Part shown: positions 4,669 to 28,448 of the stretch, in pieces | Layout of the letters: every line of letters starts with the position of its first letter | How positions within the stretch are numbered: position 1 is the stretch's first letter | Source: Dickeya dadantii NCPPB 898 | Lineage (GTDB): Bacteria > Pseudomonadota > Gammaproteobacteria > Enterobacterales > Enterobacteriaceae | NCBI RefSeq assembly: GCF_000406145.1 | Contig: NZ_CM001976.1 | Location: 4,733,677-4,765,676, forward strand | Direction: 5' to 3' | DNA: 32,000 nucleotides | Notes under the pieces: generated by a model | Databases searched by the model: none | What the model was told of the DNA's origin: nothing | The model's input: only the letters and a program-made list of their open reading frames with translations | Position numbers and translations under genes: made by a program

Positions 4669-5316
4669 ATGCTAAAAGAGTCTGTCGCGCTAGCCAAGGC
4701 AGCGGAAACCGGCCGGAAACCGGGGCTGGCTCACACCCTGAAAGACGACGTATACGGCCTGATGCTGGGGGTGATGTTTATTGCGATCGGCCTGAATTTG
4801 CTCAAACTCTCAGGCATGATCACCGGCGGGATTGCCGGCATCGCTTTACTGCTCTCCTACTTTATTCCGCTGTCGATCGGCGTGCTGTTTATCCTCGCCA
4901 ATATCCCATTCATGATTTTCTGCTACTTCAGCATGGGGCGCGCCTTTACGCTGAAAACGCTGATCGTCAATATCGCCCTGAGCGCCGCCACCCAGGCGGT
5001 GCCCGGTCTGCTGACCATCAACTATATCCACCCACTGTTTTCCGCGCTGGTGGGCGGCACCTTTCTCGGCATGGGCATTCTCTCGCTGGCGCGCCACAAT
5101 GCGTCGGTCGGCGGCACCGGCGTCGTCACCCTGTGGCTCTACAAACGCTTCAATATCAATGCCGGCAAAAGCCAGATGCTGCTGGATATGCTGGTGTTCG
5201 CCGTGTCCATATTCACCATGCCCGCTCACCTGCTGCTGTGGTCGGCGCTCAGCGCGCTGGCGATGAACGCCATGCTGATGAACTGGCATAAGCCGGGGCG
5301 GTATCAAGGCGGGTAA
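4669..5316 (+). CDS. YitT/DUF161-like polytopic inner-membrane protein (215 aa)
   Basis: At least five hydrophobic segments with GG-rich motifs (MITGGIAGIALLL, VGGTGVVTL) typical of the YitT family as I recall it. Divergent from the Lrp-family regulator. Its last 52 nt are duplicated at 9870-9921. Confidence 0.55.
   Translation: MLKESVALAKAAETGRKPGLAHTLKDDVYGLMLGVMFIAIGLNLLKLSGMITGGIAGIALLLSYFIPLSIGVLFILANIPFMIFCYFSMGRAFTLKTLIVNIALSAATQAVPGLLTINYIHPLFSALVGGTFLGMGILSLARHNASVGGTGVVTLWLYKRFNINAGKSQMLLDMLVFAVSIFTMPAHLLLWSALSALAMNAMLMNWHKPGRYQGG
5265..5316 (+). repeat. left copy of the 52-bp direct repeat (functional 3' end plus stop of the YitT-like gene)
   Basis: gaacgccatgctgatgaactggcataaGccggggcggtatcaAggcgggtaa matches 9870-9921 at a 4605-bp offset, 50/52 identical. 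Confidence 0.95.
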
Positions 5317-5361
5317 GATGGCGGTGTAATGGTAGCCATCAGGCGAACGGCTATTCCGCTA

Positions 5362-6570
5362 TTACTGAGTTGCATTCAGTAATGCCACAAACTGCTGCCA
5401 TAGCGCGTCAGCACTACGCTCGTACCCTTGCTGGGTAAGATGAATCAAGTCAGGACGTGCAATTCCCTGTTGTTGCCAGCGTTCAATAGCGCAGTCTCCC
5501 CCCATGTAATCAAACCAGTTCCAAAACAGCGTGTGATAGGATTGGGCAACCTCTCGCTGGGCCTGAATAACCGGTTTTAGCAAAGCCGGCTGGAGCTGCT
5601 GGCAAGATGCGCCATTTTTATTGCTGATGCTGCTACCGGGGCCAACCAGCAGAATGACCGCTTCCGGCAACACACGCCTGATAGCCTGTACATATTCGCT
5701 ATAATTTTGCTGATAACGTTGGATATCAAGTTGTTGGTCAAAGGCTTCGTTCGTGCCGTACGCCATGATGACCATATCCGGCTTCAGCATTTGTAACGTG
5801 GATAACCAGTTATCGCGCCATTTATCCAGCATGGAAACCCGGGCGCCGTTGATACCAAGCGCACTCAACATGACGCCACCGCTGTTACTGGACGACAGTA
5901 GCCACCCGGCCAGTTGGCTCCCTCCCGAAGGCGCCAGCGAATACCTGACAGGCGACTGGACAGTCACCGGCTGGCTCAATGTCCAGCGGGACTGACTGCA
6001 TGGCAGAACAACCGTCCGATGCTGGATCTGTATCTTCCCGTTCGCCTGATTACGATACAGCGCTTGCATTAAAAAGGCCGGGTCAGTGTCACGCACAATC
6101 AGCTCTGCGTTATTATTGTCCTGACGTGGCGTGGCGATATTACCGCCCAATGTAAATCCAGCATTCGTGGTTTTTCGACTGGTTATCATGTCCCAGCCTT
6201 TAGCATTGGCGAACAAGACGTTATCAGACCGGTTGCCAGATATTGCCAAAGGACTAATAAAACCGACGCCGCCGTCTCCATACTGCTGTTTAAAATGACG
6301 ACGCAGCTGCCCGGAAAAAAAATCCGACGCGGTATGCGAATCACCCAATTGCAGGATGTGAATCTTTTCTCTATCGCTATGACTTAATTTATATTTGAGT
6401 TGCTGCAACCCTGGATCGCCATAATCGATTAACTGAATCGCATTTCCCCCGGCCACAGGAAACGTAGTGGCTTGAGGAAAACTGTTATTTCCCCGGCCAC
6501 AGGATGTAAGCTGAATCAGACAGAGCGTCATCATCAAACACCTGTTTTTACCCATCATTTTATCTGGCAT
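5362..6570 (-). CDS. SGNH/GDSL hydrolase lipoprotein, Ape1-like O-acetylpeptidoglycan esterase candidate (402 aa)
   Basis: Signal peptide with lipobox LTSC (Cys24). SGNH blocks: GDSH (Ser78), SALGINGA (about Gly239-242), GTNE (Asn274), DLIH (Asp374/His377). A ~150-aa insertion lies between blocks I and II. The spacing closely parallels my recollection of N. meningitidis Ape1 (S80, G236, N268, D366, H369). Its start lies 1 nt after the upstream stop. Confidence 0.65.
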   Translation of the reverse strand: MPDKMMGKNRCLMMTLCLIQLTSCGRGNNSFPQATTFPVAGGNAIQLIDYGDPGLQQLKYKLSHSDREKIHILQLGDSHTASDFFSGQLRRHFKQQYGDGGVGFISPLAISGNRSDNVLFANAKGWDMITSRKTTNAGFTLGGNIATPRQDNNNAELIVRDTDPAFLMQALYRNQANGKIQIQHRTVVLPCSQSRWTLSQPVTVQSPVRYSLAPSGGSQLAGWLLSSSNSGGVMLSALGINGARVSMLDKWRDNWLSTLQMLKPDMVIMAYGTNEAFDQQLDIQRYQQNYSEYVQAIRRVLPEAVILLVGPGSSISNKNGASCQQLQPALLKPVIQAQREVAQSYHTLFWNWFDYMGGDCAIERWQQQGIARPDLIHLTQQGYERSADALWQQFVALLNATQ

Positions 6571-6571
6571 T

Positions 6572-7648
6572 CTAATGAGTTACCTCATTCAATGAGGGCC
6601 TCACGCTTATTTTCGAAAAAATACGTTCGGCAATCATTTTTTGTCCCGTTAGCGAGAAATGAACACCGTCATTAGTGCGGATACGCACTTTCGCCTTATC
6701 CTGTTCCATATCAGGAGAATAGATACTGCTCTGATAGCCAAAAATCTCATTCACCCGAATAGATATTTCATTTTCAGCTTTTACTTCAGACTCAAACAAA
6801 CCATTAATATAATTAACCCCATGATTTAGCTTCTTATTCTCCACATTCGGGGGAGAAACCCATATGACTGGAATCCGTTTTTCACGCGCTAAATTCAGGA
6901 TAGAGCGAATACGGTCACGATACGCGCTCTCCCATGCCGGCGACTCAAACTTCAGGAAATTCTTACCATTGCCAGACGGCATATCCCAGGGATCGTTTGA
7001 TCCTAAAAACACCACCAGCGCTCCAATATCCTGCCGTTTTTCCAACTCATGGCTCAATATTAACGGCCAGTTGAAAAAATGGGGGTACGTCAGGCCAGTG
7101 CTACGTTTACTTAAATCAATCCCCTCCACACTATAGCGATCGCGTAACATTTTAATGACGTGAGGTGCCACCCCTTCCATCATAGAATCACCGATAAAAA
7201 GGACCGCCTGCCCGGCTTTTAATACCACATGGTTGTCCCCAATATTGGTACTGGCAGCACGAGTGGCTGAATTGCCGTCAACATGAGTGTCCGGCTCTTT
7301 GACAGTGGGTGGCAACAACTTTTCCCGGGGAGCGACTGGCCTCGCAGCTTGCCGTGGTGCAACAGGCGCGTCATCAGGTATCGACTGCCGTGCGTTACCT
7401 CCAGGAGCCGATGTCAGGCTCTCTACAAATGAATCTTTGGCTGCCTGTGAGGCTTCCATCAGACGATCACCGAATACCCATGACGGACTGGTGATGCCAT
7501 CCCACGGACTTTTAGTATGAAAATGTAGCTCCCAATAACTATTGATTGATTGCTGATACAACCATATCAACCCAATCATACAACTCAGTATCACAAGCAG
7601 GCTCTTAAAGACCTGAGCCAATATGGTGCGGTATTCAGAAGTTTGCAT
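6572..7648 (-). CDS. membrane-anchored SGNH/GDSL protein, PatB-like O-acetyltransferase candidate (358 aa)
   Basis: N-terminal TM anchor (LLVILSCMIGLIWL) and a Pro/Ala-rich linker with an internal duplication (APVAPRQ / ARPVAPRE). SGNH blocks: FIGDSM (Ser155), TGL, GSND, DGVH (Asp327/His330). The Ser-to-His distance of 175 aa compares with about 172 in gonococcal PatB as I recall. Overlaps the MBOAT gene by 14 nt. Confidence 0.6.
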   Translation of the reverse strand: MQTSEYRTILAQVFKSLLVILSCMIGLIWLYQQSINSYWELHFHTKSPWDGITSPSWVFGDRLMEASQAAKDSFVESLTSAPGGNARQSIPDDAPVAPRQAARPVAPREKLLPPTVKEPDTHVDGNSATRAASTNIGDNHVVLKAGQAVLFIGDSMMEGVAPHVIKMLRDRYSVEGIDLSKRSTGLTYPHFFNWPLILSHELEKRQDIGALVVFLGSNDPWDMPSGNGKNFLKFESPAWESAYRDRIRSILNLAREKRIPVIWVSPPNVENKKLNHGVNYINGLFESEVKAENEISIRVNEIFGYQSSIYSPDMEQDKAKVRIRTNDGVHFSLTGQKMIAERIFSKISVRPSLNEVTH

Positions 7649-9038
7649 AAATAAATCCCGGCACGCCAGAAGGCGAAAACAAGAAAACCAACGCTAAAAA
7701 TGAAAAGATCACGAAAGGCACCAGATACCATTCGAGGCGCCTCAGCGTATTAGCGATAATTTCACGCAGCGTTATTAACGATGGATAGATAATTAATAAA
7801 ACAATAAAACCAGCAATTCCCCACATATCGTTTACCGTCAACTGCGCCACATCTGCTCTGGAGATAACCCTCAACATGAGCAACGCATCATGCACACTGC
7901 CAGCCTTAAAGAAAATCCAGGCCAGACAAACAAAATGAAAGGTGAATAGCCGCGCGATAACGCCAAGTATCGGAATTATTTTTTTCTTCTGACGATACTT
8001 AACCCAGAAATTGTAGAAAATCAAACCAACACCATGTATTCCCCCCCAAATTAAAAAGGTAATACTTGTGCCATGCCAGATACCAGACAATACCATCGCA
8101 ATGAAAATATTAAGCTGCGTATTCCACCATCCCTGACGACTTCCTCCTAACGGGATATAGATATAATCACGAATGAACGAAGACAGACTGATGTGCCATC
8201 TTCGCCAAAAATCCTTTATATTCTCAGCAACATAAGGATGTGAAAAATTTGTGCCTATCTGGAAGCCAAGTAAAATAGCAATTCCTGTTACCAAATTAGT
8301 ATAACCAGAAAAGTTGAAATAAATCTGCCAGGCCCACGCGTAAGTTGCCAATATACACTGCCAGCCAGTATAGTTTTCGGGATCAATGAATACAGAGGAA
8401 ACATAGTTTTCATCCAGCCATTCGTTTAAGCAGAATAACTTGGCTATCGCCAGTGCAATAAGAAACAGAGCCCGTGGCCACTCCGTTAGCTGGCGTGGAC
8501 GTTTTGTCTCTATCTGGGGTAACAGCCTGTCTGCCCGGTTGATAGGGCCGGAAAGAAAGGTGGGGAAAAAGTTCAGATAAAGCAAAGTATTAAAAAAATT
8601 ACTTTGTTTTATCTCTCCTTTTGCAACTGAAACAATCAGGCTAACGGCGTTAAATATATAAAATGATAGCCCAATAGGAAGCAATACATTAAGCACGGGA
8701 AGCGTGACAGCAATATGATACTCACTAAGTGTCATTTGCAAATCATCACGCAAACCTGAGTAATACTTAAACATAACAAAGAAAAAAACAGTAAAAAAAA
8801 TCAACAAATAAACAGAAAGCTTCCTAAATTCAGCATGTGCCGCTAAATTTAAAAGAAAGCAAATACAAGCACTAAACAACAACAATACTGTCAGAGACTG
8901 CCAGCTGGACAACAGAACAAGGCCATAACCCGCCACAAGAAGAATAAGATTCTGTACTTTTATCCAGGGAGATAAAAGCCAGTAAATCAAAAACAAAACG
9001 AGGAAGCAAAAGGAAAATTCGACAGAAATTAAATTCAT
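7635..9038 (-). CDS. MBOAT-family membrane O-acyltransferase (PatA/AlgI/DltB-like, ~467 aa)
   Basis: Polytopic protein with MBOAT hallmarks: FWRRWHISLSSFIRDYIYIPLGGSR and SGIWHG (conserved His). The ORF opens at 9050 (MVILMN...), but the ATG at 9038 (MNLISVEF...) fits the usual MBOAT N-terminus. The start is uncertain by 12 nt. Very AT-rich. Confidence 0.85.
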   Translation of the reverse strand: MNLISVEFSFCFLVLFLIYWLLSPWIKVQNLILLVAGYGLVLLSSWQSLTVLLLFSACICFLLNLAAHAEFRKLSVYLLIFFTVFFFVMFKYYSGLRDDLQMTLSEYHIAVTLPVLNVLLPIGLSFYIFNAVSLIVSVAKGEIKQSNFFNTLLYLNFFPTFLSGPINRADRLLPQIETKRPRQLTEWPRALFLIALAIAKLFCLNEWLDENYVSSVFIDPENYTGWQCILATYAWAWQIYFNFSGYTNLVTGIAILLGFQIGTNFSHPYVAENIKDFWRRWHISLSSFIRDYIYIPLGGSRQGWWNTQLNIFIAMVLSGIWHGTSITFLIWGGIHGVGLIFYNFWVKYRQKKKIIPILGVIARLFTFHFVCLAWIFFKAGSVHDALLMLRVISRADVAQLTVNDMWGIAGFIVLLIIYPSLITLREIIANTLRRLEWYLVPFVIFSFLALVFLFSPSGVPGFIYANF

Positions 9039-9415
9039 TAATATCACCATGCACTTATTAAAAATGCGATTTAGAAATACACTCTTACCCGTTGTTTCAT
9101 CTCCAGAAAATAAAAATAAAATTTAACAAAAACAATCTATCAGGAATGAAAAATAGGATTTTCACCTCACCGAAAATTCACCACGCAAATTGATATCATC
9201 AGGATTAAATCGACTAAAAATTCTACTAAAAAAAAGAAAAAATTAAAGATAACGATGACAATCACATCATCAGACACTTCTGAAAAATAATTACACGTCT
9301 ATTTCCCAGAGTTTCTTTTCATGAAATATCATTGCAGGTTGGCGGCAAATAATTACAAAGTTCTGCGGTGAAAATTACTAAAATTACTCAGGAAACAAAC
9401 AACTTAATAAATGCC

Positions 9416-9757
9416 TATACCCTAAATAATTCGAGTTGCAGGACAACACGCTCGCGTGTTGAACAACGCAACGCGTTGGCCCGTCAGGGCAAGGCTCATT
9501 AAGAGCCTTGTAACGCGGCAAGCGAGTGACAAATTCGTCGGGAACGAATTTGACCAGCCAACGGCTGGCCTCCGGTGAGAGACAGGATGTCTCTCATTTA
9601 ATCCCGATGAGCTTACTCGGGTAAGTGATTCGGGTGAACGACAAATCTGCCGGGAGCAAATTTGAACGCAGCTTGCTGCGGCCCTGAAAGGGCGAGGCCC
9701 AAGGAGGGGCCGAGTAACGCAGCCAACACACCTGCAACTTGAAGTATGACGGGTATA
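9416..9757. repeat. ERIC/IRU element, expanded composite form (342 bp)
   Basis: Canonical ERIC termini are present: tataccctaaataattcgagttgcagg (9416-) and cctgcaacttgaagtatgacgggtata (-9757). The core aatcccgatgagcttactcgggtaagtgattcgggtgaacg matches the ERIC1R/ERIC2 primer regions. The arms are interrupted by extra hairpin-forming inserts. Confidence 0.8.
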
Positions 9758-9869
9758 TACTCAACACATTGCCACCCTCAGCAATCTGGTGGAGTGACCC
9801 AGCATGGTTCCGATATGAAAAATAACGAAATGCTCCGCAGTTATGATTGATGTTCAGCACGTCAACGAC

Positions 9870-9921
9870 GAACGCCATGCTGATGAACTGGCATAAACCG
9901 GGGCGGTATCAGGGCGGGTAA
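9870..9921 (+). repeat. right copy of the 52-bp direct repeat (orphan 3' end of a YitT-like gene, encodes ...NAMLMNWHKPGRYQGG*)
   Basis: Identical to 5265-5316 except 9897 (A vs G) and 9912 (G vs A). Both fall on third codon positions and are synonymous (Lys AAG/AAA, Gln CAA/CAG). Confidence 0.95.
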
Positions 9922-9939
9922 AAGCGCCGTCAGCCGACG

Positions 9940-10674
9940 CTAGCCATTACCATCGTGGTGTTTCAGAACGATCGAACAGGTATATCGCCCGGCGGGATGA
10001 ATGGAGATGGTCGTTTCAAAGGTTTCGCCGTTGCGATCCAGATAGCGCCGTATGATTTTCAACGCCGGCGACCCGGTTTCCACCCCCAGCTGTTTCGCAA
10101 TCTTGGCCGGCACGCCAACCGCCGTAATGGTCTGGTGTACTTCCTTGCTTTGCACGCCATAGTGATTTTCGATCAAATCGCTGATCAGCGAAAACGGGTC
10201 ACTGCGCACAAGACGCCTGACCTTGTCGTAGGCAACGCTGGCATAGCTGTCCGTCCAGCAAATCGGCGCGTCCGGCTTGATGCTATCTTCCCGAATACTC
10301 GCGATATGCAGCCAACGCGACCCCGGCGGGCAACCAATGATTTGCGACAATTCATAATCGGCGACGATCTCATCAATCTTTTTCACCACCCGCACATTAT
10401 TCCTGGCCAGCGCCAGCAAATCTTCCAGGTTTGCCAGCGGGTGGTTCGTGTTCCCGTTTCTGGCATCGGTGACGTGGGTCCCGGCGCCTTTGCGTCTTGA
10501 GATCAGCCCTTGCTCGGTAAGCTCGCGCAGGGCTTCCCGCACGGTATGCCGGCTGGCCTGATACACCTCGCAGAGCGCCTTTTCGGTCGGGAAAAGTGAA
10601 CCTGCCGGGTACTTGCCGGAAACGATGTCCTGCGCCAGTTCTCGGGCAATCCGCTTATAGAGGGACTCTTTCAT
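9940..10674 (-). CDS. GntR-family transcriptional regulator, HutC subfamily (wHTH plus UTRA effector domain, 244 aa)
   Basis: N-terminal LPTEKALCEVYQASRHTVREALRELTEQGLISRRKGAGTHV is the GntR wHTH signature. The ~160-aa C-terminus is of UTRA-like length and pattern. Divergent from the lyase/transporter pair. Confidence 0.9.
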   Translation of the reverse strand: MKESLYKRIARELAQDIVSGKYPAGSLFPTEKALCEVYQASRHTVREALRELTEQGLISRRKGAGTHVTDARNGNTNHPLANLEDLLALARNNVRVVKKIDEIVADYELSQIIGCPPGSRWLHIASIREDSIKPDAPICWTDSYASVAYDKVRRLVRSDPFSLISDLIENHYGVQSKEVHQTITAVGVPAKIAKQLGVETGSPALKIIRRYLDRNGETFETTISIHPAGRYTCSIVLKHHDGNG

Positions 10675-10756
10675 AGAGATACGTTCTTCGAAAAATTAAT
10701 GATCGCTATCACAAAGCGGTGAGTAAACACTTCCGCTGACTATGCACGCTCGCTAT

Positions 10757-10820
10757 AAATGTCCGTACATTTAAAATATGTCCGGACATTTTCATCACCC
10801 TTATCGGTCGTTACGGACAT
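10757..10820. promoter_or_regulatory. three copies of an ATGTCCG(G/T)ACAT-type palindromic operator (candidate GntR/HutC binding sites) in the divergent promoter region
   Basis: Site 1 AAATGTCCGTACATTT (10757-10772), site 2 the perfect 12-bp palindrome ATGTCCGGACAT (10778-10789), site 3 gttacggacat (10810-10820, opposite orientation). All fit the GT-N(x)-AC architecture of GntR-family operators. A TATAAA -10-like hexamer (10754-10759) abuts site 1. Confidence 0.6.
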
Positions 10821-10882
10821 ACCGTACCGAGACCGTTGTTAGCGGTCAGTCTATCACTAAATCACACCCGGGAGGGGCCACT

Positions 10883-12235
10883 ATGGCATCGAATGTTCTT
10901 GATTCTATTCTGTTCAGGGACTCGTTCGGCACGCCTGAAATGCGCGCCGTCTTTGACGACCATGAATTGATTCGGAAATACGTTGAGGTAGAGATCGCGC
11001 TGGCGAAAGCCGAAGCCCGCTGCGGCGTTATCCCGCAGCAAGCCGCCGACGAGATCGCCAAAACCTGCAACGCCGACACGCTGGATTTCGACCTCCTGCG
11101 CCATGAAACCGAAATCGTCGGCTACCCGATTTTACCGCTGGTCCATCAGATCTCGAAACAGGCCGGGGCATCCGGCGGCTACGTGCACTGGGGCGCGACC
11201 ACGCAGGACATCATGGATACGGCGGTGGTGTTGCAAATCCGCGACGCCTTCGATCTGATTGAAGCGGATATCCGGTCGCTGCGTAACACGCTCGCCGATC
11301 TGGCGCGGCGCTACCGCAATACCCCGATGGCGGGCAGAACCCATCTGCAACAGGCGTTGCCCATCACTTTCGGCTACAAGGCCGCCATCTGGCTGGATAT
11401 GTTTGACCGCCACGCCGAACGCCTCGAACAGGCGCGCCCGCGCATTCTGGTCGGCGAATTCGCCGGCGCCGCCGGCACGCTGGCCTCGCTGGGCGACAAC
11501 GGTCTGGTGGTGCAGAAAGCGATGATGGAAGAGCTGAAACTGGGCGTGCCGACCTCCACCTGGCATGTGGCGCGCGACGGCTTCGCCGAAGCGGTGAATT
11601 TGCTGGCCGTCATCACCGGATCGCTGGGGAAAATCGCCTATGACGTCATGCTGCTGGCCTCCAACGAGTTTGGCGAACTGTACGAACCCTTTGTCAAAGG
11701 CCGCGGCGCCAGCAGCACCATGCCGCAAAAACGTAACCCGATCTCCAGCGAACTGATGCTGGCCTGCGCCAAAGGCGTACGTCAGCACGCCGGCCTCATG
11801 CTGGATGCGATGGTGCAGGATCTGGAACGCGCCACCGGCCCGTGGCATGCGGAATGGATCGCGATTCCGGAAAGTTTCGTGCTGGCCGCCGGCGCGCTCA
11901 ATCAGGCTAAATTCATGCTCAGCGGCCTGATTGTCGACGAACAGGCGATGGCGAAAAACCTCGATATGACCAAAGGGCTGATCGTGGCGGAAGCCGTAAT
12001 GATGGGGCTGGCGCCTTACATAGGTCGGCAAGACGCGCACGACGTGGTTTACGACGCCTGCCGTATCGTCAATACGCAGGGCGGTCGCCTGGCCGACGTG
12101 CTGAACGCCATGCCTCAGGTATCCAGCCGCCTCAAACCGGAATTAATCGAGCAGTTGACGGACCCGGTCAATTACCTCGGCATCGCGCCGGAAATGGTTG
12201 ATCAGGTGCTGGAAAAATCCGCCAAACGGCAATAA
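10883..12235 (+). CDS. fumarate-lyase superfamily enzyme (adenylosuccinate lyase / 3-carboxy-cis,cis-muconate cycloisomerase-like, 450 aa)
   Basis: Superfamily signature GASSTMPQKRNP, HWGATTQDI, and MAGRTHLQQALPITFG. I prefer the ATG at 10883 (GGGAGGGG RBS at 10869-10876). The ORF-track start 10778 lies inside operator site 2 and adds a non-conserved 35-aa extension. Confidence 0.85.
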   Translation: MASNVLDSILFRDSFGTPEMRAVFDDHELIRKYVEVEIALAKAEARCGVIPQQAADEIAKTCNADTLDFDLLRHETEIVGYPILPLVHQISKQAGASGGYVHWGATTQDIMDTAVVLQIRDAFDLIEADIRSLRNTLADLARRYRNTPMAGRTHLQQALPITFGYKAAIWLDMFDRHAERLEQARPRILVGEFAGAAGTLASLGDNGLVVQKAMMEELKLGVPTSTWHVARDGFAEAVNLLAVITGSLGKIAYDVMLLASNEFGELYEPFVKGRGASSTMPQKRNPISSELMLACAKGVRQHAGLMLDAMVQDLERATGPWHAEWIAIPESFVLAAGALNQAKFMLSGLIVDEQAMAKNLDMTKGLIVAEAVMMGLAPYIGRQDAHDVVYDACRIVNTQGGRLADVLNAMPQVSSRLKPELIEQLTDPVNYLGIAPEMVDQVLEKSAKRQ

Positions 12236-12271
12236 CCCCAGCCAATAACCCGTAAGATTGAGGAGATGATC

Positions 12272-13693
12272 ATGTCATCTGATTCATCTAAGGGAAAATC
12301 AATCGTCGCCTTTATGGTTCCCCTGTTATTGGGAACCATAATCTGGTTTTCCCCTGTACCCGAAGGATTAACACCGCAGGCATGGCATATGTTTGCCATT
12401 TTTCTCGCCACCATCGCCGCGATATTAACCCAGCCGCTGCCCTCCGGCGCAGTCATGATTATTGCGCTATGCGTCGTTATTTTTACGCAGACGCTGCCGG
12501 AAGCGAAAGCGCTGGCAGGCTTTTCCAGCGGAACCGTCTGGTTAATCTTCTGTGCGTATATTCTGTCTCTGGGATTCGTCACCTCCGGTCTCGGCAAAAG
12601 AATCGCCTATAAAATGCTGTCGTTATTCGGCGGCAGCAGTCTGGGCATCGCCTATTCATTAGGGGTTTCCGACCTGATTATGGCGCCGGCCATGCCGTCG
12701 GTCACCGCACGCTCAGGGGGCATTATTTTCCCTATCGTGCGTTCCATCAACGAAGTATTGGGTTCTACGCCGGGTGAGTCAGGGAAAAAAATCGGTGATT
12801 TCCTGATCATGGTCTGTTTCCAGTTCACCCCTATAACCGGCGCCATTTTTCTGACGGGCATGGCGGCGAATCCGCTGGTGGGCAGCCTGGCGAAATCCTC
12901 GCTAAATGTCGAAATTACCTGGGGAAGTTGGTTTATCGCCGCGGTAGTACCAGCCATGGTGTGTTTCTGTCTGATGCCGCTGCTGGTCTACAAGCTGCTA
13001 AACCCCGAATTGAAACGCACCCCGGAAGCCAGACAGATGGGGAAACAGGCGCTCGCCGAGCTGGGAACGATGACGCCCGCCGAGAAAAAAGTCGCGCTGG
13101 GATTTCTGCTGGCGCTGATTGGCTGGGGAACCAGCCTGGTTACCGGGCTATCGGCCACCGCCGTTGGGCTGGGTCTTGCCGCCTATCTGTTTGCCTCACG
13201 CGCGGTTGACTGGAAAGCCCTGCTCAAAGACCACGCCGCCTGGGATACCGTCATTTGGTTTAGCGTGATCATCAGCCTGGCCGGCGGCCTGTCCGATTTG
13301 GGTTTCATCAAATGGATGACGGTTAAAATGGGCGGCGCCATTCACGGCTTCGGCGCGATGGGCACGTTTATCTTACTCGGGCTGATCTATATTTACGTCC
13401 ACTACCTGTTCGCCACCGCGACCGGTCACGTCGCCGCGCTGTATGCGCCTTTTGCCGCCACCGCGATTGCCGCAGGCGCGCCCCCGGTCATGGTGGCGAT
13501 ATGCTTTGGTATTTTCAGCAACCTGATGTGGGGAAATACCGAATACGGCGGCGGGCCGGGGCCGATTTATTTTGCTCAGGGCTATTTTGAACGACCGCGG
13601 TTTTACAAAATCAATTTATGCGTGGTGACGGTCAATGTCATCGTGACCTTTGCCGTCGGGCTGGTGTGGTGGAATCTGCTGGGGTATTACTGA
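12272..13693 (+). CDS. DASS-family anion permease (CitT/TtdT-like di/tricarboxylate transporter, ~473 aa)
   Basis: Polytopic protein. The N-terminal pattern WFSPVPEGLTPQAWHMFAIFLATIAAILTQPLP and repeated hairpin motifs (MPSVTARSGGIIFPI, GNTEYGGGPGPIYF) are typical of the CitT/SLC13 family. AGGAG at 12261-12265 favours ATG 12272 over ATG 12266. The gap from the lyase gene is 30-36 nt, so they probably form an operon. Confidence 0.85.
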   Translation: MSSDSSKGKSIVAFMVPLLLGTIIWFSPVPEGLTPQAWHMFAIFLATIAAILTQPLPSGAVMIIALCVVIFTQTLPEAKALAGFSSGTVWLIFCAYILSLGFVTSGLGKRIAYKMLSLFGGSSLGIAYSLGVSDLIMAPAMPSVTARSGGIIFPIVRSINEVLGSTPGESGKKIGDFLIMVCFQFTPITGAIFLTGMAANPLVGSLAKSSLNVEITWGSWFIAAVVPAMVCFCLMPLLVYKLLNPELKRTPEARQMGKQALAELGTMTPAEKKVALGFLLALIGWGTSLVTGLSATAVGLGLAAYLFASRAVDWKALLKDHAAWDTVIWFSVIISLAGGLSDLGFIKWMTVKMGGAIHGFGAMGTFILLGLIYIYVHYLFATATGHVAALYAPFAATAIAAGAPPVMVAICFGIFSNLMWGNTEYGGGPGPIYFAQGYFERPRFYKINLCVVTVNVIVTFAVGLVWWNLLGYY

Positions 13694-26922: not shown

Positions 26923-28311
26923 TTATGAGGATAAGGTTCGGATTAAATTGGAAAAATCTTCTTTGATGTCGTGACTTTCCTCGCGCAGCTGCTCGATTTT
27001 GCGGCAGGCATGCAACACGGTGGTATGGTCACGGCCACCGAACGCGTCGCCGATCTCCGGCAGGCTGTGGTTGGTCAGCTCTTTGGCCAGCGCCATCGCC
27101 ATCTGACGCGGACGGGCCACCGAACGTGAACGCCGTTTGGACAACAGGTCGGCCACTTTAATCTTATAGTACTCCGCCACCGTCTTCTGAATATTGTCGA
27201 TGGTGACCAGTTTTTCCTGCAACGCCAGCAGGTCGCGCAGCGCTTCGCGCACAAAATCGATGGTGATCGACCGGCCGGTGAAATTGGCGTTGGCGATCAC
27301 GCGGTTCAGCGCGCCTTCCAGCTCACGCACGTTGGAACGCAGACGCTTGGCGATAAAAAACGCCACTTCGCCCGGCAGGCGGATATCGTTTTCGTCCGCC
27401 TTCTTCATCAGGATCGCCACGCGGGTTTCCAGCTCCGGCGGCTCGATCGCGACGGTCAACCCCCAGCCGAAGCGGGACTTGAGACGATCTTCCACCCCGT
27501 TGATCTCTTTAGGGTAACGATCCGACGTCAGGATGATCTGTTGGTTGCCTTCCAACAACGCGTTGAAAGTGTGGAAAAACTCTTCCTGCGAACGCTCTTT
27601 ATTGGCAAAAAATTGGATGTCATCGATCAGCAGTGCGTCTACCGAGCGGTAATAGCGTTTGAATTCTTCGATGGCGTTATTCTGCAACGCCTTAACCATA
27701 TCCTGCACGAAACGCTCGGAGTGCATGTACACCACTTTGGCATTCGGCTTGCGAGCGATAATGCCATTGCCCACCGCGTGCAGCAGGTGGGTTTTACCCA
27801 GACCGGTGCCGCCGTACAGGAACAACGGATTGTAGGCTCCGCCGGGATTGTCCGCCACCTGACGCGCCGCCGCGCGGGCCAATTGGTTGGACTTACCTTC
27901 CACGAAGTTGTCGAAGGTGTGCTTGGGGTTCACGTTGGAGCGATAGGTGTGCTCGGCCGGCGCCGCAGGGGTTTCCCAGCTCGGACGCACCGGCGAGGCG
28001 GCGCGCGCCTGAGGCGCGGGTGCGGCGGCGCTGTGGTGGCCGGTTGACACAACAACAGGCGTCATCGGCTTGCTGCCGACTTCAAAACGCAGCAACGGCG
28101 CATCCATGCCGCAGAAATCATTCAACAGTCCATTGATATTATTGATGTATTTATCGCGTACCCAATCCAGTACAAAACGATTCGGGGCGTAAAGCGCCAG
28201 AGTGTTGTCACTCAGTTCCGCCTGTAACGGGCGTATCCACATACTGAATTCTGTGGCAGGTAACTCATCCTGCAAACGGGCAAGACACTGCTGCCAAAGC
28301 GAAAGTGACAC
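26923..28311 (-). CDS. dnaA: chromosomal replication initiator protein DnaA (462 aa)
   Basis: GTG start at 28311 gives [32 protein letters not shown]..., as in E. coli (which also uses GTG). Walker [12 protein letters not shown] is present, and the C-terminal DNA-binding domain ends ...[11 protein letters not shown]. The 10-codon upstream extension in the ORF track is not conserved. Confidence 0.97.
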
Positions 28312-28448
28312 GGCGGACTCCACTCGAACAAGGTCAATCAAGAAAAGGAACAGACGTTAGTTATGTAACTCATGATTTTCAGGCACCCGGCTACGCATGG
28401 ATACGGCTGCGCCGGGGTGCGCCGCGCGGAAAGCGGCTTTACCGTGAC

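Follow-up and report, generated by a model that had tools for sequence, protein, structure and literature searches.

What do three tightly packed, co-oriented genes encoding an MBOAT membrane protein and two SGNH-family proteins contribute to the cell wall of Dickeya dadantii NCPPB 898, and how did they come to occupy their present site? The genes lie in a window of 32,000 nt, the whole stretch of DNA that was analyzed (NZ_CM001976.1, positions 4,733,677 to 4,765,676, forward strand), and they very probably constitute a peptidoglycan O-acetylation (OAP) patA-patB-ape system. Such a cluster had already been identified bioinformatically in this species, since Sychantha et al. (2018, PMC6174289 Table 1) list D. 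dadantii and D. zeae among the species, known and hypothetical, with PatA/PatB plus Ape clusters; the identification is, in our reading, correct but not new. The model strain D. dadantii 3937 also carries the genes (ADN00690/ADN00691), which appear in public databases under the generic names "MBOAT family," "DUF459/SGNH hydrolase," and "SGNH/GDSL hydrolase." The three proteins were assigned by Pfam and NCBIfam profile searches and by sequence searches of the PDB, and AlphaFold models of Ape and PatB, built on homologue alignments, were then searched against the PDB. The reference for Neisseria gonorrhoeae is the actual gonococcal patA-patB-ape1 locus, taken from a chromosome record that is mislabelled within a plasmid collection.

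All three open reading frames (ORFs) run uninterrupted from ATG to stop. The original prediction, an earlier reading of the bare sequence, had described three tightly packed minus-strand genes with a 14-nt patA/patB overlap and a 1-nt patB/ape gap, and both the coordinates and the overlaps were confirmed on the sequence. The genes are thus contiguous and co-oriented, which is the arrangement that defines an OAP cluster in PMC6174289 Table 1.

PatA matches Pfam MBOAT (E = 4.6e-24, 85.8 bits versus a cutoff of 27) and carries the WHISL motif at residue 285 (His286) and the GIWHG motif at residue 323 (His326). It shares 38% identity with N. gonorrhoeae PatA (NgPatA) over its full length (E = 4.5e-95), with His326 and His286 aligning with H329 and H289 of NgPatA. 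The closest solved structure in the PDB is that of DltB (E = 7e-25), in which both conserved histidines are aligned. The best NCBIfam match is also DltB (TIGR04091), with 162.9 bits against an equivalog cutoff of 375; this score is under the cutoff and no dltA, dltC, or dltD partner gene is found within the window, so PatA is not assigned to the DltB proteins of teichoic acid D-alanylation. The C terminus, F466-I-Y468-A-N-F471 (FIYANF), is identical to residues F473 to F478 of NgPatA, and the longer string GVPGFIYANF is invariant across all five Dickeya PatA alleles. Anderson et al. (2025, PMC12148441) report that PatA auto-acetylates the tyrosine of a C-terminal FxYxxF motif and that this requires the invariant MBOAT histidine.

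PatB belongs to Pfam DUF459 (E = 2.7e-58, 197 bits versus a cutoff of 27.2), and its sole NCBIfam match is the PatB model (NF045704), which is aligned over model positions 5 to 339 of 347. In the PDB, it matches N. gonorrhoeae PatB (NgPatB; 7tjb and 7trr, E = 2e-48), with which it shares 32% identity, and Campylobacter jejuni PatB (8tlb, E = 2e-35). The GDS motif places the nucleophile at S155, and the DGVH motif provides D327 and H330. PatB enzymes differ from SGNH hydrolases in that Ser or Asn replaces Gly in block II and in that a hydrophobic wall stands behind the nucleophile (PMC12148441). All seven NgPatB residues compared, S133, S161, N196, L250, D302, I304, and H305, have conserved counterparts in the Dickeya protein (S155, S183, N218, L274, D327, V329, and H330, respectively), which gives an active site of the transferase type, with S183 in block II, N218 in block III, and a hydrophobic wall formed by L274 and V329 (L254 and V309 in C. 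jejuni PatB). The acetyl donor of NgPatB is acetyl-FIYANF (PMC12148441), the tail sequence found in Dickeya PatA. The AlphaFold model superposes on 7tjb with a template modeling (TM) score of 0.93 and on 8tlb with a score of 0.91, over 210 to 225 columns; the top five matches are all PatB structures (TM, 0.89 to 0.93), and the next fold scores about 0.6 to 0.7. The SGNH domain (residues 140 to 353) is modeled with a predicted local distance difference test (pLDDT) score of >90, and a confident helix spans residues ~4 to 30 at the N terminus. The modeled protein therefore has the predicted fold of PatB together with an N-terminal membrane anchor, the β-hairpin wings being judged by overall superposition only. 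Between anchor and domain lies a Pro/Ala-rich linker that is predicted to be disordered (residues 81 to 132, pLDDT of ~30). Between alleles, the linker region (window positions 7195 to 7450, residues ~67 to 151) is the least conserved coding stretch of the cassette that holds the operon (described below), with 36 to 45% DNA identity and gaps. The N-terminal region of PatB is reportedly dispensable for catalysis in vitro, and the poor conservation and disorder of the linker fit this.

The third protein, Ape, matches Pfam Lipase_GDSL_2 (E = 4.4e-17) and, at residues 100 to 200, Ape1_N (E = 9.8e-13, 49 bits versus a cutoff of 27), a CBM35-like domain that is inserted between SGNH blocks I and II. 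Its best PDB matches are Neisseria meningitidis Ape1 (4k3u, E = 1.8e-51) and C. jejuni Ape1 (E = 3e-27), and it shares 33% identity with N. gonorrhoeae Ape1. The GDSH, GTN, and DLIH motifs provide S78, N274, and D374 and H377, respectively. The gonococcal residues S80, G236, N268, D366, and H369, whose roles are given in PMC6174289, correspond to S78, G242, N274, D374, and H377, all five of which are invariant in 17 homologues; the spacing from S78 to G242 is 164 amino acids. The model (pLDDT, 86) shows the two-domain Ape1 fold, with TM scores of 0.91 to 0.92 to 4k3u and 0.82 to 0.84 to C. jejuni Ape1, and Ape1 structures are its only close matches in the PDB, the next fold scoring about 0.35. 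Ape also has an L-T-S-C lipobox, whose Cys24 shows a conservation of 90% or more in the 17 homologues, and an Asp at position +2 is absent in every Dickeya Ape allele. By the sorting rule of Escherichia coli lipoproteins, an Asp at +2 decides the membrane destination. Ape is accordingly predicted from its sequence to be an outer-membrane lipoprotein, so that writer and eraser would face the sacculus from opposite sides, the former from the inner membrane and the latter from the outer membrane.

These results bear out most of the original prediction, and the Pfam E values lie far outside what chance would produce. The profile, PDB, and model searches place the two SGNH proteins with PatB and Ape1, as it had proposed, and not with AlgJ/AlgX, WssI, or unrelated lipases, an outcome that it had named as a refutation. 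The CBM-like insertion lies where it had been read, and the Neisseria residue numbers that it had given agree with the N. gonorrhoeae locus and with PMC12148441 and PMC6174289. The motifs likewise stand at the residues that had been named for them, save that the oxyanion-hole glycine of Ape, rightly recognized, had been put at about residue 239 and is in fact G242, the second G of GINGA.

The genes also appear to be maintained. None of the alleles examined has a disruption in any of the three ORFs, and the ratios of nonsynonymous to synonymous substitution rates (dN/dS), computed for the cassette genes against the D. poaceiphila alleles, range from 0.12 to 0.20, compared with 0.10 to 0.12 for the adjacent yitT, which indicates selection for function. 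By homology with Neisseria and Campylobacter, the inner-membrane protein PatA would take acetyl groups from cytoplasmic acetyl-CoA and would use His326 to acetylate Tyr468 of its FIYANF tail at the periplasmic face. PatB, tethered to the inner membrane by its single helix and flexible linker, would accept the acetyl group on Ser155 and, with the S155/H330/D327 triad and an oxyanion hole formed by Ser183 and Asn218, would pass it to the C6-OH of N-acetylmuramic acid. Ape, with the S78/H377/D374 triad, would strip acetyl groups from the peptidoglycan and so open the glycan to lytic transglycosylases, whose cleavage requires an unmodified C6-OH. O-acetylation blocks lysozymes and lytic transglycosylases alike (PMC6174289), and the net effect in Dickeya, if the operon is expressed and its products have these activities on this substrate, would be a tunable block of lysozyme-type muramidases combined with control of the cell's own autolysins.

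Several points weigh against this assignment. Identity to the characterized enzymes is limited to 32 to 38%. The NF045704 score of PatB (255.6 bits) is under the equivalog cutoff of 580, and because of this, NCBI labels the protein "SGNH family hydrolase"; neither PatA nor Ape1 is represented by an NCBIfam model. The literature that could be searched yielded no biochemical or muropeptide results on Dickeya. Upstream of patA, a simple search for sigma-70 sites gave no clear promoter on the minus strand, and the sites returned by the promoter and terminator scan were no more frequent than in shuffled sequence; the low GC content of the upstream region and the foreign composition make silencing of the operon in the laboratory possible. 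In addition, the localization of Ape, and perhaps its regulation, may differ from that of the Neisseria enzyme given the lipobox.

The peptidoglycan assignment has to be weighed against a different substrate. The MBOAT-SGNH pair might acetylate another polymer, such as an alginate-like polysaccharide, cellulose, another exopolysaccharide, or lipopolysaccharide, with the third protein acting as a general carbohydrate acetylesterase, for example, on acetylated plant polymers. The subthreshold DltB match as the best NCBIfam hit of the MBOAT protein speaks for this, as does the biology of Dickeya, which breaks down acetylated pectin and possesses further acetylesterases. MBOAT-SGNH pairs act on several polymers (PMC12148441), and Neisseria Ape is substrate promiscuous in vitro (PMC6174289). 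This alternative was assessed through the partner proteins and synteny. The SGNH partner is of the PatB type (DUF459), and no AlgX-, AlgJ-, or WssI-type domain was found by Pfam scans at an E value of ≤0.1 or among the top structural matches. The esterase has the two-domain fold specific to Ape1, far from the nearest other fold, and the PatA tail is identical to that of NgPatA. Synteny with known OAP clusters is strict, and the neighborhood (yitT, asnC, gntR, a lyase gene, and a symporter gene) contains neither dltACD nor genes for a polysaccharide synthase or for export. On this evidence, another substrate is extremely unlikely, and the choice of peptidoglycan over alginate or cellulose in the original prediction is favored by the PatB/Ape1 partners, the FIYANF tail, and the synteny. 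It is also conceivable that an OAP operon is present as intact but silent or decaying foreign DNA, which would add nothing to the cell wall chemistry of Dickeya. The foreign composition and the upstream region of about 30% GC, which would be typical of xenogeneically silenced DNA, point in this direction, as do the lack of a clearly located promoter, the absence of the cassette from certain Dickeya genomes in which nothing has obviously taken its place, and one Dickeya solani cluster member that is a truncated PatB of 218 to 231 amino acids. A relic would not be expected to look like the alleles examined, in which the ORFs are intact and the catalytic residues, lipobox, and FIYANF tail are kept despite saturated synonymous divergence, with dN/dS values similar to those of yitT, a housekeeping-type neighbor. 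We therefore regard a silent relic as very unlikely and retain the reading of a functional patA-patB-ape system.

The operon lies in a low-GC block of 4.55 kb (positions 5317 to 9869) that comprises the three genes, an AT-rich upstream region, and an ERIC-like repeat (Table 1). The GC content at third codon positions is 0.42, 0.47, and 0.55 in the three genes versus 0.69 to 0.79 in the flanking genes, and windowed GC drops to 0.35 to 0.47 versus about 0.59.

Table 1. Positions of the cassette genes, associated elements, and bracketing repeats in the window; functions are those predicted here
Feature	Position	Strand	Description
patA	7635-9050	-	MBOAT acetyl-translocase, 471 aa
patB	6572-7648	-	Membrane-anchored SGNH O-acetyltransferase, 358 aa
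ape (ape1-like)	5362-6570	-	O-acetylpeptidoglycan esterase, predicted lipoprotein, 402 aa
Upstream region of patA	9051-9415	-	AT-rich, non-coding; presumed operon promoter/regulatory region
ERIC-like dispersed repeat	9416-9757	no strand	342 bp, with 27-nt inverted ends; inside the cassette
Direct repeat, left copy	5265-5316	+	Authentic 3' end of yitT (final 52 nt, with the stop codon), from alignment with the empty site
Direct repeat, right copy	9870-9921	+	Second, stranded copy of this yitT end, 52 nt with 2 mismatches; gntR stop 18 bp away

Copies of the yitT 3' end flank the cassette on both sides as a direct repeat, around which weaker similarity reaches positions 5232 to 5325 and 9837 to 9930 (79%); gntR, beyond the right copy, is convergent. 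In two other Dickeya genomes (loci L087 and L088), whose YitT is 93% identical, yitT is followed by gntR after 14 bp with no cassette between them, which is exactly the empty site predicted by the repeat, and the right repeat copy with its downstream sequence reproduces the junction of this empty site. A replacement is seen in L084 (GCA_020406675.1, labelled D. dadantii; cassette region, 4941 to 9237), in which the flanks show ~97% DNA identity to the window on both sides and the cassette proteins only 66, 58, and 67% identity. Identity between the two sequences breaks sharply at about 5317 and 9865, at the repeat copies, and the right-hand yitT copy measures 66 nt in L084 versus ~52 nt in the window. 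Synonymous divergence between them ranges from 1.7 to saturated in the cassette genes, compared with 0.10 in the adjacent yitT. The L084 allele represents a third Dickeya allele lineage, which is nearest to the Dickeya aquatica/lacustris type (71 to 78%). The direct repeat, the empty site, and this allele swap are what goes beyond earlier knowledge of the cluster, and they are a modest new observation.

Other Dickeya species show further arrangements of the same interval. In D. aquatica, D. chrysanthemi, and D. dianthicola, as well as in a lacustris/aquatica-type locus (L082), the order is gor-patA-patB-ape(-yitT), with neither a second yitT copy nor the gntR(UTRA)-lyase(Lyase_1/ADSL_C)-Na/sulfate-type symporter module that lies between the cassette and gor in the window (positions 9940 to 13693). 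This module is also absent in D. zeae, and a D. zeae genome (L089) carries unrelated cargo, a DUF3237 gene and an esterase gene, at the same place. The whole interval between yitT and gor thus behaves as a recombination hot spot. Ape identities among the Dickeya alleles are 62 to 91%, and those between Dickeya and any non-Dickeya locus are at most 53%, so a recent import from outside the genus is rejected. Diversifying selection as the source of the allele divergence is likewise rejected by the low dN/dS values. No integrase or transposase is found in or beside the cassette and no tRNA gene in the window, which excludes a classical integrative island for the present structure, and the window is not a plasmid, since a megablast search of the locus against plasmids gave only a 90-bp Klebsiella match inside yitT.

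The Dickeya-specific clade formed by the cassette genes thus indicates an old acquisition followed by exchange within the genus. We infer a single early acquisition by the genus, from a donor of lower GC content, after which Dickeya lineages lost and regained the cluster or exchanged it among themselves at the hot spot. The repeat would be the scar of a homology-anchored insertion, either Campbell-type or homology-facilitated illegitimate; the same repeat could mediate precise loss, and the event may run in either direction in any one lineage. The portable island of the original prediction therefore stands in part: the composition and distribution of the genes agree with it, and in Dickeya the cassette has no mobility gene and its acquisition appears old. 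A tentative and rather doubtful extension is that the OAP operon of Dickeya is a replaceable cassette, which some genomes lack and others carry in one of at least three deeply diverged lineages of alleles (near-conspecific strains have two of these), and whose states set O-acetylation as a strain-level determinant. If these states do differ in O-acetylation, they could affect resistance to lysozyme-like hydrolases of the host and to muramidases of phages or competitors, as well as the release of peptidoglycan fragments to host immune receptors, and a strain-level determinant would have gone unrecognized in a plant and insect pathogen. The natural empty-site and alternative-allele genomes make the question of O-acetylation directly testable in Dickeya.

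Two noncoding parts of the cassette lie upstream of patA. The 365 bp next to the gene have a GC content of 0.299 and cannot be aligned between the cassette alleles of the window and L084. The element beyond them resembles the ERIC consensus, and we take it to be an enlarged ERIC/IRU-type intergenic repeat. Its ends are an imperfect inverted TATACCC...GGGTATA that recurs in many other Enterobacterales loci, and a 94-amino-acid ORF at positions 9594 to 9878 is probably spurious. Nothing within the cassette reaches an Rfam gathering score; two subthreshold AaHKsRNA22 matches (E = 0.15 and 0.45), both within the ERIC-like repeat, were dismissed. Elsewhere in the window, Rfam identifies AsdA, the antisense RNA of the dnaA mRNA, at positions 27736 to 27816 on the plus strand (86.9 bits versus a gathering score of 52). 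The match lies within dnaA (26923 to 28341, minus strand), which is about 17 kb from the cassette, and dnaN, recF, gyrB, and yidC are also in the window.

The distribution of the triad beyond Dickeya was surveyed with a degenerate pattern in one genome per species, which gave 427 loci encoding relatives of the esterase; none of these is from Dickeya, whose contexts were collected individually. Gene order was read in the best 80, and in 79 of them patA, patB, and ape are adjacent, in the same order, and on one strand, the lone exception ending at a contig end. The loci include Proteus (with Proteus mirabilis), Providencia, Morganella, Photorhabdus, and Xenorhabdus, as well as scattered species of Citrobacter, Enterobacter, Yersinia (Yersinia pekkanenii), Pantoea, and Pseudomonas. 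P. mirabilis has long been known to O-acetylate its peptidoglycan. In Citrobacter portucalensis (L086, 4405 to 9134), the triad is carried on a mobilizable IncFIB/IncFII plasmid. An ElyC/SanA/YdcF-family gene adjoins the triad on this plasmid and in three further loci (L003, L006, and L031; 49 to 58% identical) and may be a fourth cotraveling envelope gene in some lineages, Dickeya not being among them. In draft E. coli assemblies (L093 and L094, 5527 to 9197), the triad is part of an island that contains IS66 and also encodes a group II intron reverse transcriptase and a phage-type integrase; no match to this E. coli-type triad was found by megablast in 5,426 complete E. coli genomes, and the triad is therefore rare in that species. 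Locus L006, from a record titled Chryseobacterium sp. 18061, holds an Enterobacterales-type triad in the same order, whose products are 47 to 50% identical to those of Dickeya; this is odd for a member of the Bacteroidota, and the assembly may well be contaminated or mislabelled.

Peptidoglycan O-acetylation is a recognized mechanism of lysozyme resistance and autolysin control in animal pathogens, and no experimental study of it in a plant pathogen was found in the literature. The Dickeya system is itself a typical representative of a well-studied family. The practical value of the present assignment lies mainly in annotation, because the defining sequence and fold features of PatA, PatB, and Ape1 are all present in proteins that now carry generic names.

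Compared with known systems, the Dickeya cluster shares an MBOAT membrane component with an invariant histidine with AlgI/AlgJ/AlgX, WssH/WssI, and DltB, and the alginate and cellulose acetylation systems also have a periplasmic SGNH transferase and a C-terminal tyrosine shuttle (PMC12148441). The Dickeya cluster differs from the alginate, cellulose, and Dlt systems in lacking the algF, dltACD, and polysaccharide synthase partners and in including an Ape1-type esterase. With C. jejuni PatA/PatB/Ape1 (matched structures, PDB 8tlb, 8gld, and 8gkd), it has in common the MBOAT histidine, the FxYxxF tail, the PatB triad with a non-Gly residue in block II, and the two-domain Ape1. The C. jejuni proteins are more distant, as the E values of PatB and Ape1 given above show, and they differ in the block II residue of PatB, which is Asn in C. 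jejuni and Ser in both Dickeya and N. gonorrhoeae, and in the PatA tail, which is FIYSSF rather than FIYANF. Other Enterobacterales clusters have the same triad, gene order, and lipobox cysteine, with identities to the Dickeya proteins of 41 to 52% for Ape, 43 to 52% for PatA, and 34 to 44% for PatB; their chromosomal contexts are different, and the Dickeya alleles form a clade of their own. The closest parallel in organization is the OAP cluster of N. gonorrhoeae and N. meningitidis, which, as the original prediction had stated for gene order, consists of the same three genes in the same order on one strand, down to the 14-nt patA/patB overlap. The FIYANF tail, the catalytic, oxyanion-hole, and hydrophobic-wall residues of PatB, and the five Ape1 residues are shared as well, and the folds superpose at TM scores of 0.91 to 0.93, even though sequence identity is low. 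The signal peptide of Neisseria Ape1 is of the plain type, without the lipobox cysteine (Cys24) of Dickeya Ape; Dickeya PatB has a longer, Pro/Ala-rich linker; and the 1-nt gap at the patB/ape junction is replaced by a 4-nt overlap in Neisseria. Unlike the Neisseria cluster, that of Dickeya forms a low-GC cassette, which some genomes of the genus carry and others lack.

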